Of a stretch of 64,000 bases of DNA, positions 5,385 to 58,164 are shown piece by piece. The notes beneath the pieces are model-generated. The model had not been told where the DNA came from. It saw only the letters and a program-made list of their open reading frames with translations, and did not search any database. Position numbers and translations under genes: made by a program. Source of the stretch: Candidatus Wolfebacteria bacterium GW2011_GWE2_44_13. GTDB lineage: Bacteria > Patescibacteriota > Minisyncoccia > UBA6257 > UBA9933. The DNA lies in the NCBI GenBank assembly GCA_001000675.1, contig LCHW01000001.1, positions 360,875-424,874 on the forward strand, written 5' to 3'. Numbering within the stretch: the first letter of the stretch is position 1; every line of letters starts with the position of its first letter.

Positions 5385-5412
5385 GTTTCTATACTTTTTT
5401 CTAGAAAAAAGT
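5385..5412. repeat. A/T palindrome preceding copy 1 of the dispersed repeat.
   Basis: atacttttttctagaaaaaagtat is a perfect inverted repeat. Confidence 0.4.
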
Positions 5413-5422
5413 ATCAAAAAAG

Positions 5423-5563
5423 TCACGAACCAGAAATATTTCGGGGTCGCCTCCAAAACGGCAGAAGCTCGGAACTCGCACGCCGAGGGTAGGCGCGCTC
5501 AAACACCGAGCTTCTTCCGATATTTTTCCAGCGCCCTTTATCCGAAATATTCCCATGTTCGTA
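5423..5563 (+). repeat. Dispersed structured intergenic repeat, copy 1 (about 140 bp).
   Basis: Near-identical to 25535-25673 and diverged from 49046-49196. It has internal long-range complementarity (agaagctcgg with ccgagcttct; gaaatatttcgg with ccgaaatattcc). Confidence 0.6.
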
Positions 5564-5580
5564 GATGGGGTAATAAAATA

Positions 5581-5617
5581 AAAATAACCGTCAGCTTAGG
5601 GCTGACGGTTATTTTAT
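5581..5617. terminator. Bidirectional intrinsic terminator.
   Basis: aaccgtcagc-ttag-ggctgacggtt flanked by A/T runs, sitting between convergent genes. Confidence 0.55.
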
Positions 5618-5624
5618 GTTCATA

Positions 5625-6464
5625 TTATTTTAGGTTTGACTGCAGGAATTTAAGTGTCCTTTGCCATGCATCCTTTGTTTCGTTTGGTGCGTAGCTTTGG
5701 CCCGACGGGTTGGCAAACGCATGGCCAACGCCTGGATAAATAACAATATCATTTTGAATACCAAGCTCGTTTAGTGTATCACGAAATGCGTTGACTGCTT
5801 TTGGTGGGATGCCTTGATCTTCGCCTGCAAAGTTCCCGAGTACGGGCCATGTGATGGCGCGCAACTCATCTTTTGTGACCGTTACGTTTCCATAATAGAT
5901 AATCGTTGCATTAAGTTGCTCACCAGAAAGTGCAAGTTGCAGAGATTGACCACCTCCAAAGCACCATCCGAGTGAAGCAATTTTAGTAGCGCCTTTTGCG
6001 CGAAGATACGCTGTGGCGGCGCGCATATTCTCCCGCCCTTTTTCTTTGTCGAATGACCCCGTTTGTTTACGTGCTTCATCTTGGGTTGTTGCTACTGTGC
6101 CAAACATGTCTACGGCGAGTACTTGATAGCCTTGGCCTGCAAGCTCTTTTGCTGTTTCGCGCATTGTGTCGTTTAAGCCCCACCATTCGTGAATCATGAC
6201 GATACCTGGATAGGTACCCGGTGCTTCTGGGCGAGCGTAGAAACCATTTCGATCGGGGAAGTATGTCGCAGCTTCTGTGATAACGGGAACGGCTGCGCCA
6301 TTTTTCATGATTGCAATATTTGCGTCTGTTAATGACGTTGCCATTGGCGGAACGTCATGAATATCTTCTGGTGCCCAAGCGCTTCCGCGCCACAGAATAA
6401 GCGCAGCGATTACAATAAATACACCAAGAGCAATATGTAATGATAATTTGAAATAATGGTTCAT
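5625..6464 (-). CDS. Dienelactone hydrolase-family alpha/beta hydrolase with an N-terminal signal/TM segment.
   Basis: VMIHEWWGLNDTMRETAKELAGQGYQVLAVDMF and the nucleophile elbow GWCFGG are typical of DLH/carboxymethylenebutenolidase. Confidence 0.55.
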   Translation of the reverse strand: MNHYFKLSLHIALGVFIVIAALILWRGSAWAPEDIHDVPPMATSLTDANIAIMKNGAAVPVITEAATYFPDRNGFYARPEAPGTYPGIVMIHEWWGLNDTMRETAKELAGQGYQVLAVDMFGTVATTQDEARKQTGSFDKEKGRENMRAATAYLRAKGATKIASLGWCFGGGQSLQLALSGEQLNATIIYYGNVTVTKDELRAITWPVLGNFAGEDQGIPPKAVNAFRDTLNELGIQNDIVIYPGVGHAFANPSGQSYAPNETKDAWQRTLKFLQSNLK

Positions 6465-25187: not shown

Positions 25188-25261
25188 CGCGGGTTAGAGG
25201 AACGGTTACCTCGTAAGGCTCATAACCTTGAGAACTGGGTTCGACTCCCAGACCCGCAACA
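25188..25261 (+). tRNA. tRNA-Met (CAT); the acceptor features suggest initiator tRNA-fMet.
   Basis: 5' CGCGGGT pairs with 3' ACCCGCA, with a C1·A72 mismatch as in bacterial initiator tRNA. Anticodon loop CUCAUAA. T-arm CTGGG-TTCGACT-CCCAG. Confidence 0.65.
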
Positions 25262-25262
25262 T

Positions 25263-25301
25263 AAAAATAACAGCCACCTGTAAAAGGTGGCTGTTATTTT
25301 T
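25263..25301 (+). terminator. Intrinsic terminator.
   Basis: aaaaataacagccacc-tgtaaaa-ggtggctgttattttt. Confidence 0.55.
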
Positions 25302-25410
25302 ATGTTATGTCGGTGGGGAGAAGAAGGGTATTCTAAAAATATGAACTGCTTCATGTTTTTAGAAACCCCGGCGATGGGGGCGAAGCTTGTGCGAAGCGAC
25401 GGAGGAAGAG

Positions 25411-25428
25411 GACTCCCAGACCCGCAAC
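25411..25428 (+). repeat. 18-bp direct repeat of the tRNA-Met 3' end (att-like remnant).
   Basis: gactcccagacccgcaac is identical to 25243-25260, the T-arm 3' half plus acceptor 3' strand of the tRNA at 25188. Confidence 0.6.
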
Positions 25429-25508: not shown

Positions 25509-25530
25509 GTTCTTTTTTAAAAAAGAACCA
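25509..25530. repeat. A/T palindrome preceding copy 2 of the dispersed repeat.
   Basis: gttcttttttaaaaaagaac is a perfect inverted repeat. Confidence 0.4.
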
Positions 25531-25534
25531 AAAA

Positions 25535-25673
25535 TCACGAACCAGAAATATTTCGGGGTCGCCTCCAAAACGGCTGAAGCTCGGAACTCGCACGCTAGGG
25601 TAAGCGCGCTCAAACACCGAGCTTCTTCCGATATTTTTCCGGCGCCCTTTATCCGAAATATTCCCATGTTCGT
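25535..25673 (+). repeat. Dispersed structured intergenic repeat, copy 2.
   Basis: About 95% identical to 5423-5563, in the same orientation. Confidence 0.6.
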
Positions 25674-25782
25674 TGAAATTAATAGTTGGATTCTGGATAC
25701 CGGCTTTCGCCGGTATGACGAATAGCGCAGTATTGATTCGAGAGCCTTTCCATGATTTAATGATATGTATTCAAATTGAATT

Positions 25783-43079: not shown

Positions 43080-45515
43080 ATGACAAACATTATTAAAAAA
43101 ATTACAGTCGCATTGTTGAGCATAACCGCAGTCGCGGGTGTATTTGCTCCAGTTGCGAGCGTTTCTGCTGCGACATTTAATACGAGTGCAAACGATTATC
43201 CAACATTGCAAATTTCAAACTATACGCGTAATCCGGAGAGTAATGTTAACTGGTCTAACGCAGTGGCTGCAAACGCGGGAGAGGTTGTTAGCTTTCTTGT
43301 GTATTATCACAACACTGCATCGGATACTGCAAACGGAACAACGGTTCGTGTGCAGCTTCCAACAGGAGCGTTTACTACTACAACTATAACGGGTGGCGTG
43401 AGCGCATCAAATGCTTCTACTGTAAACGGCAACGTTTCCGTCAATCTTTCGTCTAGCCAAACGATGACCTTTATACCAGGGTCAGTAAGTTGGTATCCAA
43501 ATAAAAGTGCTACTCCGCGCGCATTGTTGAATGGACAGAGTGGCAGCGAGGTTGTTTCTGGAGGTCTTTCCGTTGGAAATATTGCCGGTGGATGGGCAAG
43601 CCAAGGGTACGTTACTTTTCGGGCGCAGGTAAATAACAGCGGAGGCACAGGGGGTGGAAATAACGGAACAGTTGCTTCTGTTTCAACTAACTCAGCTGTT
43701 TCTATTGGTCAGAATTATGCAACCCTACAGGGGAATGCTAACCCAAATAATTCCAACACAACGGTTTGGTTTGAGTATGGAACATCGCAGTCGTTCGGTA
43801 ACACAGCTGGTAACCAGACGATTGGTTCAGGCGCTGCGTCAACGAACGTTTCTGCCTATGTGCAAAACCTTTCTTCGAACACGACCTATTATTATCGTGC
43901 TGTTGCGCAAAATTCTTACGGAACTACCTATGGTAATACATTAAGCTTTACTACTCAGCCATTTAATAATGGCGGAGGAAATAACAATGGATCTGTTGCA
44001 TTTGTTACAACTAATCCTGCTACTGCAGTTGCCTATAACAACGCCGTATTAAATGGTTCGGTTAACCCGAACAATTCCAATACAAGTGTGTGGTTCGAAT
44101 ATGGAACGACACAGTCGTTTGGGAACACTGCGGGAAGCCAGACGCTTGGGTCAAGTAACTATACGACAACCATCACTGGATATGCGTATAACCTTACGCC
44201 AAATACGACTTATTATTATCGTGTTGTTGGACAAAATTCATCGGGAACAACGTATGGCAACACATTGAACTTTACGACACAGTCTTCTGGTTATAATACC
44301 AGTGGCAATACGCCGCTTGTATACACTAACGCTGCTAACTCTGTTACGACAAATTCCGCAACATTTAATGGGTCGGTGAACCCAAACAATAGCTATGCGA
44401 ATGCTTGGTTTGAATATGGTATGACCCAGTCATTGGGATATACTACGGGATATCAGGCAATCGGATCGAGCAATTACGCAACCACATTAACGGGAAGCGT
44501 AACTAGTCTTGCATCGAATACCACCTATTATTATCGTGCCGTTGCACAAAATTCTTATGGAACTACCTATGGTAATACGCTGAGCTTTACCACAGGAGGT
44601 TCTTCGACGAACACCTCTGGTATCGCGCCATATGTTACAACACGAGCTGCGCAGTCAGTATTCCGTAACTCTGCTTTGATTGATAGCTCAGTAAACCCGA
44701 ATGGTTCATTGGGAACTTCTTGGTTTGATTGGGGTGCAACCACCGCATTTGGCAGCCGAACAATTATTAGACCGATTGGCCAGGCTAATTATGCCGATAA
44801 TCATTCTGCAATTTTGAGCGGATTGAATGCGGGGACTACGTATTACTATCGTGCTGTTGCACAAAATGCATACGGAACAACGTATGGTAATACCCTTACC
44901 CTTACAACAACTGCGGATTCGATTGTGCCTGTTGTGATTAATAATCCAACACCCGTACAGCCACGCGTTATTGTGCAGCAGACTGCTTCTGGCGTCGCTC
45001 CGACCGTTACCCTAACACCGTCGATTGATAAAAAGAATCCACGGGGAGGTGACGAGATTGAATACACAATTCAGTATCGCAATGAAATGGCGAGCCCAAT
45101 CACAAACGTAACGTTAAGGGTTGAGTTGCCAAGTGAAGTAACATATGACACCGCAACGCTGAAGCCAAGTGTTTCAACGGATAACTCTGTCACATTTGAT
45201 TTAGGAACGATTACTGCAAATACACAGGGAGTCATTACAATCAAAGCAATCGTTAATCGAACTATTGATGCTGAAGATACATTAATCTTTGGTGCAACGA
45301 TTAACTACACGAACGCACGAAATCAATTCCAGTCTGCAACTGCATACCTTACTGTATTAGTAGGATCAGGTGTCGCGGGGTTGGCATCCCTTATAAGTGT
45401 ATTCGGTAATTTGTTCTCTTATTGGTTTGTCGATCTTATCCTTGGTTTGTTGATTGGTTTTGGAATATATCATTTCTTTGTTCGACAAAAAGAGGAAGAT
45501 GTATTGGTAAAGTAA
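43080..45515 (+). CDS. Large (811 aa) surface protein with four tandem Ig/FN3-like repeats of about 105 aa, a DUF11-like domain and a C-terminal TM anchor.
   Basis: Signal peptide. Repeats each end in TTYYYRAVAQNSYGTTYGNTLSFTT, and the underlying repeats are visible at the DNA level across roughly 43660-44900. Hydrophobic C-terminal anchor. Confidence 0.55.
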   Translation: MTNIIKKITVALLSITAVAGVFAPVASVSAATFNTSANDYPTLQISNYTRNPESNVNWSNAVAANAGEVVSFLVYYHNTASDTANGTTVRVQLPTGAFTTTTITGGVSASNASTVNGNVSVNLSSSQTMTFIPGSVSWYPNKSATPRALLNGQSGSEVVSGGLSVGNIAGGWASQGYVTFRAQVNNSGGTGGGNNGTVASVSTNSAVSIGQNYATLQGNANPNNSNTTVWFEYGTSQSFGNTAGNQTIGSGAASTNVSAYVQNLSSNTTYYYRAVAQNSYGTTYGNTLSFTTQPFNNGGGNNNGSVAFVTTNPATAVAYNNAVLNGSVNPNNSNTSVWFEYGTTQSFGNTAGSQTLGSSNYTTTITGYAYNLTPNTTYYYRVVGQNSSGTTYGNTLNFTTQSSGYNTSGNTPLVYTNAANSVTTNSATFNGSVNPNNSYANAWFEYGMTQSLGYTTGYQAIGSSNYATTLTGSVTSLASNTTYYYRAVAQNSYGTTYGNTLSFTTGGSSTNTSGIAPYVTTRAAQSVFRNSALIDSSVNPNGSLGTSWFDWGATTAFGSRTIIRPIGQANYADNHSAILSGLNAGTTYYYRAVAQNAYGTTYGNTLTLTTTADSIVPVVINNPTPVQPRVIVQQTASGVAPTVTLTPSIDKKNPRGGDEIEYTIQYRNEMASPITNVTLRVELPSEVTYDTATLKPSVSTDNSVTFDLGTITANTQGVITIKAIVNRTIDAEDTLIFGATINYTNARNQFQSATAYLTVLVGSGVAGLASLISVFGNLFSYWFVDLILGLLIGFGIYHFFVRQKEEDVLVK

Positions 45516-48898: not shown

Positions 48899-48986
48899 TT
48901 TCTTTTGTCATTCCCGCCCTTCGGCAGGCTCAGGGTAAAACTCTGGCGGGGATCTATCCTATTTTAAAAAGCGTCTTTTCTTTCCA

Positions 48987-49008
48987 CTTTTTTTATAAAA
49001 AGTGGAGT
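48987..49008. repeat. A/T palindrome preceding copy 3 of the dispersed repeat.
   Basis: ccactttttttataaaaagtgg. Confidence 0.35.
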
Positions 49009-49045
49009 AAAAAATCGCGAGCTAATAAAAATAGCGGAATGTTCT

Positions 49046-49196
49046 CAGAAATTGCTTACGAACTCGAGAACTCGCCGTTGGTACGGCTCAGACAGCTCGA
49101 TTTCTGTGGCAATTTTTCCTCGACCATTTCATCCGCTATTTTCACAGGCTCGCACATAAGACTCAGCGCCCTTAATCCGAAATATTTCCATGTTCG
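49046..49196 (+). repeat. Dispersed structured intergenic repeat, copy 3 (diverged).
   Basis: The 3' end agcgcccttaatccgaaatatttccatgttcg closely matches copies 1 and 2; upstream similarity is patchy (ctcgagaactcgcc, ctcagacagctcgatttct, atttttcc). Confidence 0.45.
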
Positions 49197-49243
49197 TAAA
49201 TAAGGGAACATAGCGGATATATAAAAAATAAAAAGCCGGGAAA

Positions 49244-49268
49244 ATCCCGGCTTTGGTAAAACATTCGC
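49244..49268. terminator. Palindromic intrinsic terminator; the T-run is stronger on the - strand.
   Basis: aaaaagccggg-aaaat-cccggcttt, with tttttatttttt on the reverse complement. Confidence 0.5.
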
Positions 49269-49269
49269 T

Positions 49270-49600
49270 CGCCCCGAGCCCCTTTGATAATCCCGGCACC
49301 TGACGCAACCTGCGCGGTTTCCTCCGGTTATTTCTCCCAAGTAAGGGGTGGTATCTCATACATGGCTCCGCCTTAACCGGAGTTAAGGGTTCACAGCCTC
49401 CCACCTAGCCTGCGCGGTACTTTTGTCTCGGGGGCAAAACAGGGTGGAGTTGAACCACCAAGCGGTGGACTCATGCATTCCCAAGGGCGCCTGCAGTATC
49501 AGGCGATGTCGGGGTCGGCATTACTGCGAATCCGGTGCTGTCCAGTTCAGTCCCAGGGCGAGCGAAACTGATATCAATGTAACTGCAGGTATCGTATACT
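49270..49600. ncRNA. Candidate structured ncRNA (about 330 nt, GC-rich, ORF-free). Could be RNase P RNA or another housekeeping RNA; class and strand unresolved.
   Basis: No ORF of 60 aa or longer on either strand. GC is well above the surrounding sequence. Long-range pairing between ttcgctcgcccc (49263-49274) and gggcgagcgaa (49557-49567). Multiple internal hairpins (ccacc-aagc-ggtgg, ctccggttaaggcggag). There is weak resemblance to RNase P CR motifs. Confidence 0.35.
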
Positions 49601-57679: not shown

Positions 57680-57975
57680 TTTTTTCTTTTATTGGTTATG
57701 CTATGAAGAACAAAAATAAAAATTATTTTTTGTGTAGGAACGTAAATAAAAAATATTTTTATAAAAATATTTTCTAAAAATGTTTTTTTAGAGTTATCCA
57801 CATTGTAAAAAATATTTTTATAGTTCAAAATTAAAGTATAAGAAGAATAATAAATTAAAAATAAATAAATTCATTTTTTATTTTCAATTTTATTTTTTTT
57901 ATCCATGGGTTATCGGTTTAAAATAATTTGATTGGTCGACAAATTAATTTTAAATATATAAATTAATTATTACGT
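57680..57975. promoter_or_regulatory. Extremely AT-rich intergenic region with repeated AAAAATATTTTT palindromes, one perfect DnaA-box consensus TTATCCACA (57794-57802) and one degenerate box (TTATCCATG, 57897-57905).
   Basis: Direct inspection; about 300 bp with very low GC. Confidence 0.35.
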
Positions 57976-58011
57976 GTGTGCACTTTGGTGTATGCGCAAC
58001 ATAAAAAAATT

Positions 58012-58164
58012 ATGGCAGCAAAAAAAGCAGCTAAAAAGGCAGTAAAGAAAGTAGCTAAGAAGGCAGTAAAGAAGGCCGCTAAGAAAGTAGTAAAGAAAGC
58101 GGTAAAGAAGGTGGCTAAGAAGGTAGTAAAGAAGGCCACAAAAAAGGTAGCAAAAAAGAAATAA
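58012..58164 (+). CDS. Lys/Ala-repeat histone H1-like basic protein (KKAxKKV repeats).
   Basis: MAAKKAAKKAVKKVAKKAVKKAAKKVVKK... encoded by roughly 24-30-bp tandem DNA repeats and followed by a strong terminator. The antisense ORF at 57963-58370 is spurious. Confidence 0.5.
   Translation: MAAKKAAKKAVKKVAKKAVKKAAKKVVKKAVKKVAKKVVKKATKKVAKKK

Follow-up and report, generated by a model that had tools for sequence, protein, structure and literature searches.

A repeat of about 140 nt recurs in a 64,000-nt stretch of the genome of Candidatus Wolfebacteria bacterium GW2011_GWE2_44_13 (the window), each time between genes and beside a perfect A/T palindrome, and raises the question of what kind of element it is and which strand carries it. 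The original prediction had read the copies on the plus strand, with the palindrome upstream and a terminator downstream, as either small-RNA genes of 140-180 nt or MITE/REP-like elements.

The existence of the family is borne out. Copies 1 and 2, predicted to be about 95% identical, are 96-97% identical (5418-5565 against 25530-25676), and all copies are intergenic and share one orientation, as had been proposed. A 20-nt core motif occurs three times in the 64-kb window against 0.05 expected. The similarity of copy 1 to copy 2 sets in precisely at the base of the hairpin, and despite their 96% identity the two have unrelated flanks and differing palindrome clamps. The third copy, originally placed at 49046-49196, is a true relative that had been wrongly delimited. 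Judged from its sequence, the third locus is composite, combining a complete but diverged type-3 (T3) hairpin with a fragment of the type-1 (T1) form represented by copies 1 and 2 (Table 1). A covariance model built from T1 sequences only matched T3 over its full length (53.9 bits, E 1e-10), so the third copy is not a chance similarity. The fragment matches one arm of copies 1 and 2 at about 92% identity (87-94%), and no partner arm for it was found in folds. No further copy lies within 10 kb on either side of the window, and three copies in ~82 kb is a low density. The assembly breaks inside the element in two independent assemblies. The window recurs without a difference in an NCBI MAG (GCA_003508115.1, locus L094), which therefore offers no strain polymorphism for comparison; the window proteins were also matched residue for residue in the Rifle aquifer (groundwater) metagenome and in GCA_000299275.1. 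A protein-coding role for the element was rejected, as copies 1 and 2 are out of frame with each other owing to a 1-nt indel, and stop codons interrupt the copy in a related genome (L006, below).

Table 1. Positions in the window of the hairpins, their 3' elements and the neighbouring units
Feature	Position	Strand	Evidence or remark
Copy 1, T1 long hairpin, ~140 nt	5424..5563	-	terminal helix ACGAAC/GUUCGU; covariance-model score 177.9 bits
Copy 2, T1 hairpin	25536..25673	-	covariance-model score 175.1 bits
Copy 3, T3 hairpin	49016..49154	-	T1-like architecture, terminal helix GCGAGC/GCUCGC
T1 relic fragment, 34 nt, upstream of T3	49164..49197	-	first ~34 nt (5' arm, minus sense) of a T1 element
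U6 tract, 2 nt past base of hairpin 1	5416..5421	-	sequence, alignment
U5 tract, 1 nt past base of hairpin 2	25530..25534	-	sequence, alignment
U6 tract, 1 nt past base of hairpin 3	49009..49014	-	sequence, alignment
Perfect palindrome ATAC-T6-CTAG-A6-GTAT, downstream of hairpin 1	5391..5414	.	weak as an RNA hairpin, -7.2 kcal/mol
Perfect palindrome GTTC-T6-A6-GAAC by copy 2	25509..25528	.	palindrome scan
Perfect palindrome TCCAC-T5-ATA-A7-GTGGA (minus reading) by copy 3	48983..49006	.	identical at L006
Primary intrinsic terminator of the dienelactone hydrolase gene, upstream of copy 1 (minus sense)	5581..5615	-	scan call on the minus strand only
Dienelactone hydrolase gene	5625-6464	-	Pfam DLH match
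Short G+C hairpin GTCATACCGGCGAAAGCCGGTAT, upstream of copy 2 (minus sense)	25695..25719	-	without U tail
Intrinsic terminator of the neighbouring ~330-nt RNA, not of the element	49232..49254	-	scan call on the minus strand only; tail TTATTTTTTA
Conserved ~330-nt RNA candidate	49257..49584	-	promoter TTGACT-17-TACGAT, own terminator, 14-bp closing helix, T-arm-like hairpin (GGUGGUUCAACUCCACC)

Relatives were found at the uvrB-uvrA site and beside uvrB in other genomes. By UvrB (89% identity) the nearest species genomes are two Candidatus Wolfebacteria MAGs, loci L006 and L007, whose coding DNA is ~78% identical to the window; L006 carries a full T1 hairpin. A model built from the four Wolfebacteria sequences, run over 80 Patescibacteria uvrB neighbourhoods (1.4 Mb), recovered one more member, in Candidatus Falkowbacteria HGW-1 (L013:9512-9638, minus strand, 27 bits). 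Its 3' side reads UAAG, U7, then GGGCCCAC-U8-C-A8-GGGGC, and this U-tract and palindrome behind the hairpin confirm the match independently. Five family members were thus available for comparison, three of them closely related and two at orthologous sites. Searching 1.66 Mb for complementary ends of the form RCGARC/GYTCGY, spaced 85-150 nt and with a T-run behind them, gave seven matches, five of which are the modules themselves; matches to a relaxed module pattern elsewhere were coding DNA or weak folds and were rejected. A small plus-strand unit (L013:9700-9925), whose promoter is of the TTGACA type and whose terminator is strong (AAACCCGCC...GGCGGGTTTTCTTTTTT), lies between the Falkowbacteria module and uvrB. 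At L006:15201-15299 (minus) a 28-bp perfect hairpin is followed by a U-run (-57 kcal/mol, z -11); it is an unrelated perfect terminator hairpin and was rejected as a family member. Very long terminator-type hairpins seem to occur in these genomes.

We then asked which strand folds. In the 50-pair structure of the four aligned sequences, the minus strand has G-U in 19 cells, spread over 8 column pairs, and A-C in none, and reading the plus strand turns all 19 wobble pairs into A-C mismatches. Copy 1 alone has 43 Watson-Crick pairs, 7 G-U and 0 A-C on the minus strand. The consensus fold is also better in this sense (-40.1 versus -26.5 kcal/mol on the plus strand), as is that of copy 1 (-68.3 kcal/mol with z -6.7, versus -52.5 kcal/mol); copy 2 folds on the minus strand at -66.9 kcal/mol with z -7.4. 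The extended self-complementarity noted in the original prediction is borne out by fold z-scores between -4.2 and -7.4 across the loci, and covariance-model scores for the element are 165-178 bits on the minus strand versus 24-32 on the plus. Since the plus strand is G-rich around the region, mutation bias would give a wobble asymmetry opposite to that seen. The G-U asymmetry, the better minus-strand fold and this skew argument together identify the folded molecule as the minus strand, reversing the predicted assignment, and this molecule is most simply an RNA. A single-stranded-DNA hairpin on the lagging-strand template was rejected, as the wobble-tolerant strand is the other one. More generally, using wobble-pair asymmetry for strand assignment can overturn a plausible gene anatomy.

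Compensatory substitutions, on which the original prediction had made the choice between an RNA and a selfish MITE partly depend, are abundant. In the four-sequence alignment 97% of cells are paired and both sides have changed in 21 of the 50 pairs, against 6.1 +/- 2.1 in shuffles and 0-2 in slid controls; because this alignment had been fitted to the model, the counts are biased toward pairing. The least alignment-dependent comparison is that of the window T1 with the L006 T1, which are 80-86% identical where coding DNA of the two genomes is ~78% identical. Here the 11 differing pairs comprise five double changes, five G-U intermediates and one broken pair. Between copies 1 and 2 three pairs differ, through a C-G/U-A double change, a U-G/C-G change and a broken outermost pair. 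Comparison of T1 with T3 shows 17 pairs preserved through double changes, with column identity higher at unpaired (69%) than at paired positions (54%), and the two types have the loop motifs CGGAURAA, GGAAAAAU, UGUYUGAG and CGAGUUC in common. Collectively, these results show that pairing has been kept by selection on the minus strand. Covariation on one strand, the general mark of a structured non-coding RNA, is thus seen here with four to five sequences in an alignment partly fitted to the model.

Read in the minus sense, the hairpin has a constant 3' side. The terminal helix of the Wolfebacteria hairpins is RCGARC/GYUCGY, and a U-tract follows the hairpin in all five members, as U5-6 after 1-2 nt in the four Wolfebacteria copies and as U7 after 4 nt in the L013 copy. 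A T-run/A-run palindrome, closed by a short clamp in which G-C pairs are usually present, starts 1-3 nt past the U-tract. The three perfect A/T palindromes of the window were correctly predicted, albeit on the wrong side: they lie downstream of the hairpin, after the U-tract, rather than upstream of the element. As RNA they would form weak hairpins of -6 to -14 kcal/mol. Within the 64 kb, the only T-run/A-run palindromes whose clamp includes G-C pairs and is 4 bp or longer are those beside the three elements, and no empty palindrome, that is, one without an element, was found; an additional palindrome at 57750-57773 is all-A/T and of a different type. The terminator scan does not call the element hairpins, whose stem is far longer than the model of the scan. 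The order of hairpin, U-tract and palindrome is shown to be conserved in two classes of Patescibacteria. Further repeats in the window include a 12-nt periodic repeat at 57990-58157, which encodes a lysine/alanine-rich protein of ~50 aa (KKAAKK-type, histone H1-like tail) in very A+T-rich intergenic surroundings with several A/T palindromes (57718-57819), and four tandem repeats of ~315-324 nt (66-77% identical) at 43852-44912, within a large gene whose 811-aa product has a CLIPPER-domain match.

The occupants of the uvrB-uvrA site differ among the three Wolfebacteria genomes. In the window, the full T3 hairpin adjoins the palindrome and the T1 fragment lies farther out. At the L006 site the same palindrome and U-tract are followed by the full T1 hairpin, and farther out by a 19-nt T3 start and a T1 trace (GGGUUAAGGG). 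The 230-nt spacer at L007 holds no hairpin, palindrome or fragment. The full-length copy is always the one adjacent to the palindrome. Because traces of both types are present in the window and in L006, T1 and T3 are older than the split of these genomes, and the differing occupants indicate that hairpin-sized units have been replaced or deleted at this site.

The terminators that had been taken to follow copies 1 and 3 were called on the minus strand only and end neighbouring units, the hydrolase gene and the ~330-nt RNA, which places them upstream of the elements in the functional orientation. Just 17 nt (5564-5580) separate the first of them from hairpin 1. All four Wolfebacteria copies lie behind a short G+C hairpin (minus sense) and face the 3' end of a plus-strand gene, the convergent partners being exoX, tRNA-Met or uvrB; the element neighbours as a whole are exoX, the dienelactone hydrolase gene, tRNA-Met, uvrB and uvrA. 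No gene in the same orientation lies close upstream of copy 2 or the L013 copy. No canonical promoter was found upstream of the element on either strand, and the 75 nt upstream of each copy in the minus sense contain no sigma-70 match. A single weak promoter-like match on the plus strand (9/12) falls inside copy 1, with none upstream of any copy. Canonical promoters are present on other local units, for example TTGACT-17-TACGAT on the neighbouring ~330-nt RNA. The predicted anatomy of a 140-180-nt plus-strand gene therefore did not hold, given the lack of a canonical promoter on either strand and the G-U asymmetry of 19 to 0.

Several features of these flanks were noted in their own right. The best database relatives of the dienelactone hydrolase are archaeal (Nitrosopumilaceae, 50-59% identity) with no close Patescibacteria orthologue among them, which suggests that the gene was acquired horizontally. 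The last 18 nt of tRNA-Met (GACTCCCAGACCCGCAAC, 25241-25258) are repeated 170 nt downstream at 25411-25428, and the CCACGTAAAAAC and terminator after this repeat are the sequence directly 3' of the tRNA in a 52%-identical relative, L086. This arrangement resembles a scar left where an element integrated at the 3' end of tRNA-Met, of which ~150 nt would remain, including a hairpin at 25265-25305. A hairpin family of the form GTCATWCCSGS...(loop)...SCSGGWATC occurs in the window at 25709-25719 (minus) and 48907-48917 (plus), at L013:9320-9330 and at L090:2515. In the window, each of the two exact occurrences is at most ~100 nt from an element copy, and another neighbours the L013 module; terminator-type hairpins of this form may be common in these genomes.

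The ~330-nt RNA candidate next to copy 3 is conserved at L006:12165-12500 (minus) and absent from L007. Within it, 84 nt nearly reproduce the 23S rRNA L1-stalk (LSU model 2129-2212, 44.2 bits, E 3e-12), with the same match in L006, and the rest is unlike 23S rRNA. Some Parcubacteria lack ribosomal protein L1. Two possible roles are binding of L1 and imitation of the tRNA-elbow contact site; the candidate may be more novel than the hairpin family.

Searches for known relatives of the hairpin support the original view that it is not a known RNA family. At gathering level, Rfam 15 returned only four tRNAs in the window, and permissive scans gave no relevant match at the three loci, only sub-threshold chance-type ones (for example mir-3957, 29.6 against a threshold of 84). 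The exact pattern of the core motif had no match in 185,579 species genomes; the sole metagenome match was rejected as chance, lying inside a high-GC phasin-regulator-like ORF. Three viral scans gave chance matches only and no covariance-model match. Protein searches for more copies with the spurious ORFs that cross the element gave no match, and searches with chimeric proteins, aimed at sites orthologous to those of copies 1 and 2, returned only the same genome, L086 and distant hydrolase homologues. In L086 the tRNA-Met pair is present without the element, and a 10-nt match there is a chance one inside a GIY-YIG ORF. Loci L122 and L123 belong to unrelated organisms and were set aside. A likeness of the apical region to a kink-turn or group II intron domain V, seen by eye, was dropped because the consensus spacing was not fitted. 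This is a previously undescribed, lineage-restricted hairpin family found in uncultured groundwater Candidatus Wolfebacteria.

Several systems described elsewhere share parts of this anatomy. ERIC/IRU (RU-1), BOX, RUP and bcr1 are transcribed intergenic repeats, ERIC being a 127-bp imperfect palindrome of enterobacteria (PMC2759123, PMC2229807, PMC3184786). The element is similar to ERIC/IRU in being an imperfect palindrome of ~130-140 bp, strictly intergenic, with a long RNA hairpin and a place at the ends of transcription units, and in a copy number that in ERIC/IRU runs from few to many. Unlike ERIC, to which it has no sequence relation, it belongs to another phylum (Patescibacteria), has a low copy density, and combines a fixed three-part module, including a U-tract and an A/T palindrome, with covariation that is strong and G-U-specific and with conservation that spans classes; a search for the ERIC2 core 22-mer, allowing up to three mismatches, found no match. 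For REP/BIME, roles in termination, mRNA protection and protein binding have been proposed (PMC2817692). The element resembles these gamma-proteobacterial palindromic repeats in lying between convergent genes or at operon ends and in forming composite arrangements. REPs are 20-40 nt long, occur in hundreds of copies, have a head of the GTAG type and are partnered by RAYT transposases, whereas the element is a single hairpin of ~140 nt in few copies, with no Y1 transposase seen in the covered window genes. It shares with intrinsic terminators a stem-loop followed by a U-tract within 1-4 nt, in five of five members. In intrinsic terminators the U-rich tract begins 0-2 nt past the stem; the four Wolfebacteria copies lie within that spacing (1-2 nt) and the L013 copy beyond it (4 nt). 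Intrinsic terminators have stems of 5-15 bp; the stem of the element, in contrast, is ~50 bp with conserved internal loops, and it stands behind an ordinary terminator. Like MITEs of the Correia/NEMIS kind, it is within ~100-160 bp, has terminal inverted repeats and near-identical dispersed copies, and breaks assemblies; unlike them, it has no TA or other target-site duplication, is paired over its whole length, evolves by compensatory change and is associated with a palindrome. A predicted rod-like RNA with an internal loop also recalls 6S RNA. That RNA is, however, ~180 nt with a large central bubble, while the element is 140 nt, its largest internal loop is ~7 x 5 nt and it is present in at least three copies. 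Neither 6S (RF00013) nor any other Rfam family matched at E up to 10 (copy 1) or up to 1 (copies 2 and 3).

Taken together, the element looks closer to a repeated terminator-type RNA hairpin than to a classical small-RNA gene. Our leading interpretation, which we put forward tentatively, is a cis-acting RNA hairpin module on the minus strand with a terminator-type 3' end, placed where transcription units converge. It is favoured by the invariable U-tract, the lack of a shared or canonical promoter, the place behind a primary hairpin and the convergent site. Hairpin and U-tract would form a long-stem, one-directional intrinsic terminator and a structure protecting the 3' end, and would act on minus-strand transcripts that read through the short primary terminator ahead of the element, at places where a minus-strand unit runs toward the 3' end of exoX, tRNA-Met or uvrB. 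ERIC and REP/BIME-type repeats are thought to act as cis RNA modules at transcription-unit ends, and the element may work as these transcribed palindromes between genes do in other bacteria. Proteins could make contact at the conserved internal loops and at the palindrome, and hairpin-sized units would be duplicated or replaced through recombination among family members. Against such a module, 140 nt with conserved internal loops exceed any obvious need of a backup terminator, and copy 2 and the L013 copy have no co-oriented gene close upstream. Those two copies would need a promoter of their own if expressed, as in the possible, though somewhat doubtful, alternative that the copies are stand-alone minus-strand small-RNA genes, each giving a rod-shaped RNA of ~150 nt that ends at its own hairpin and U-tract and acts in trans or binds protein through its loops. 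Deep conservation with covariation, the loop sequences kept between T1 and T3 and the age of both types relative to the split of the window and L006 genomes all agree with genes of this sort. They are harder to reconcile with the absence of a canonical promoter or of an Rfam relative, with paralogues 1 and 2 that have no common sequence upstream of the hairpin base, and with the 17 nt that remain between the upstream terminator and hairpin 1. A plus-strand version of the same idea, in which the palindrome serves as operator or promoter element upstream and the right-hand hairpins as terminators, could point to a palindrome 8-10 nt left of each copy and to hairpins 18-35 nt right of copies 1 and 3. 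It is barely credible in the face of 19 wobble pairs turned into A-C mismatches, plus-strand model scores of 24-32 bits against 165-178, terminators called on the minus strand only, a sole weak promoter-like match (9/12) inside copy 1, and a copy 2 without a terminator before tRNA-Met.

The turnover at uvrB-uvrA bears on a further reading, which we consider unlikely, of a non-autonomous mobile or cassette-like DNA element that is site-specific for the T-run/A-run palindrome and whose older copies are pushed outward and decay. It would account for the different occupants in the window, L006 and L007, for the palindrome-adjacent copy being always the full one, for 96%-identical copies 1 and 2 between unrelated flanks and different clamps, and for the breaks of two independent assemblies within the element; the neighbours also look accessory (the archaeal-like hydrolase gene and the tRNA-Met integration scar). 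Opposed to it are the absence of a target-site duplication, with no direct repeat in the flanks of copies 1, 2 and 3 or the L006 copy and only a one-sided A/U-run in common, and the absence of an empty palindrome in 64 kb. Transposase, integrase and reverse-transcriptase domains are likewise lacking among the called window genes as covered by Pfam (all save ~12-16 kb), density is low at three copies in ~82 kb, and G-U-specific maintenance of pairing with conservation between genera would be unusual for a MITE. Known mobile systems did not fit either. The ends CACGAAC...GTTCGTA (T1) and CGCGAGC...GCTCGCA (T3) do not agree with the R''(RYYYAAC)...R'(GTTRRRY) of integron attC sites, and the copies lie 20 kb apart among housekeeping genes with no integrase seen. 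Retron msr-msd, IS200-IS605 omega-type RNA and IS110 bridge RNA were rejected for want of an adjacent reverse transcriptase, TnpB/IscB or IS110 recombinase domain. A more speculative proposal, and an improbable one, is a new class of conserved structured Patescibacteria RNA whose members are exchangeable cassettes, installed site-specifically at a palindromic docking site and displacing older copies; if true, palindrome-docked RNA cassettes would be an undescribed way to move or replace RNA genes.

To our knowledge, the bacteria of the Candidate Phyla Radiation, with their tiny genomes, have almost no characterised non-coding elements. A hairpin module kept by selection in Wolfebacteria and Falkowbacteria would be among the first lineage-specific RNA/DNA modules described there, and would provide a handle on how convergent transcription is ended or insulated, or on how small elements move, in these bacteria.
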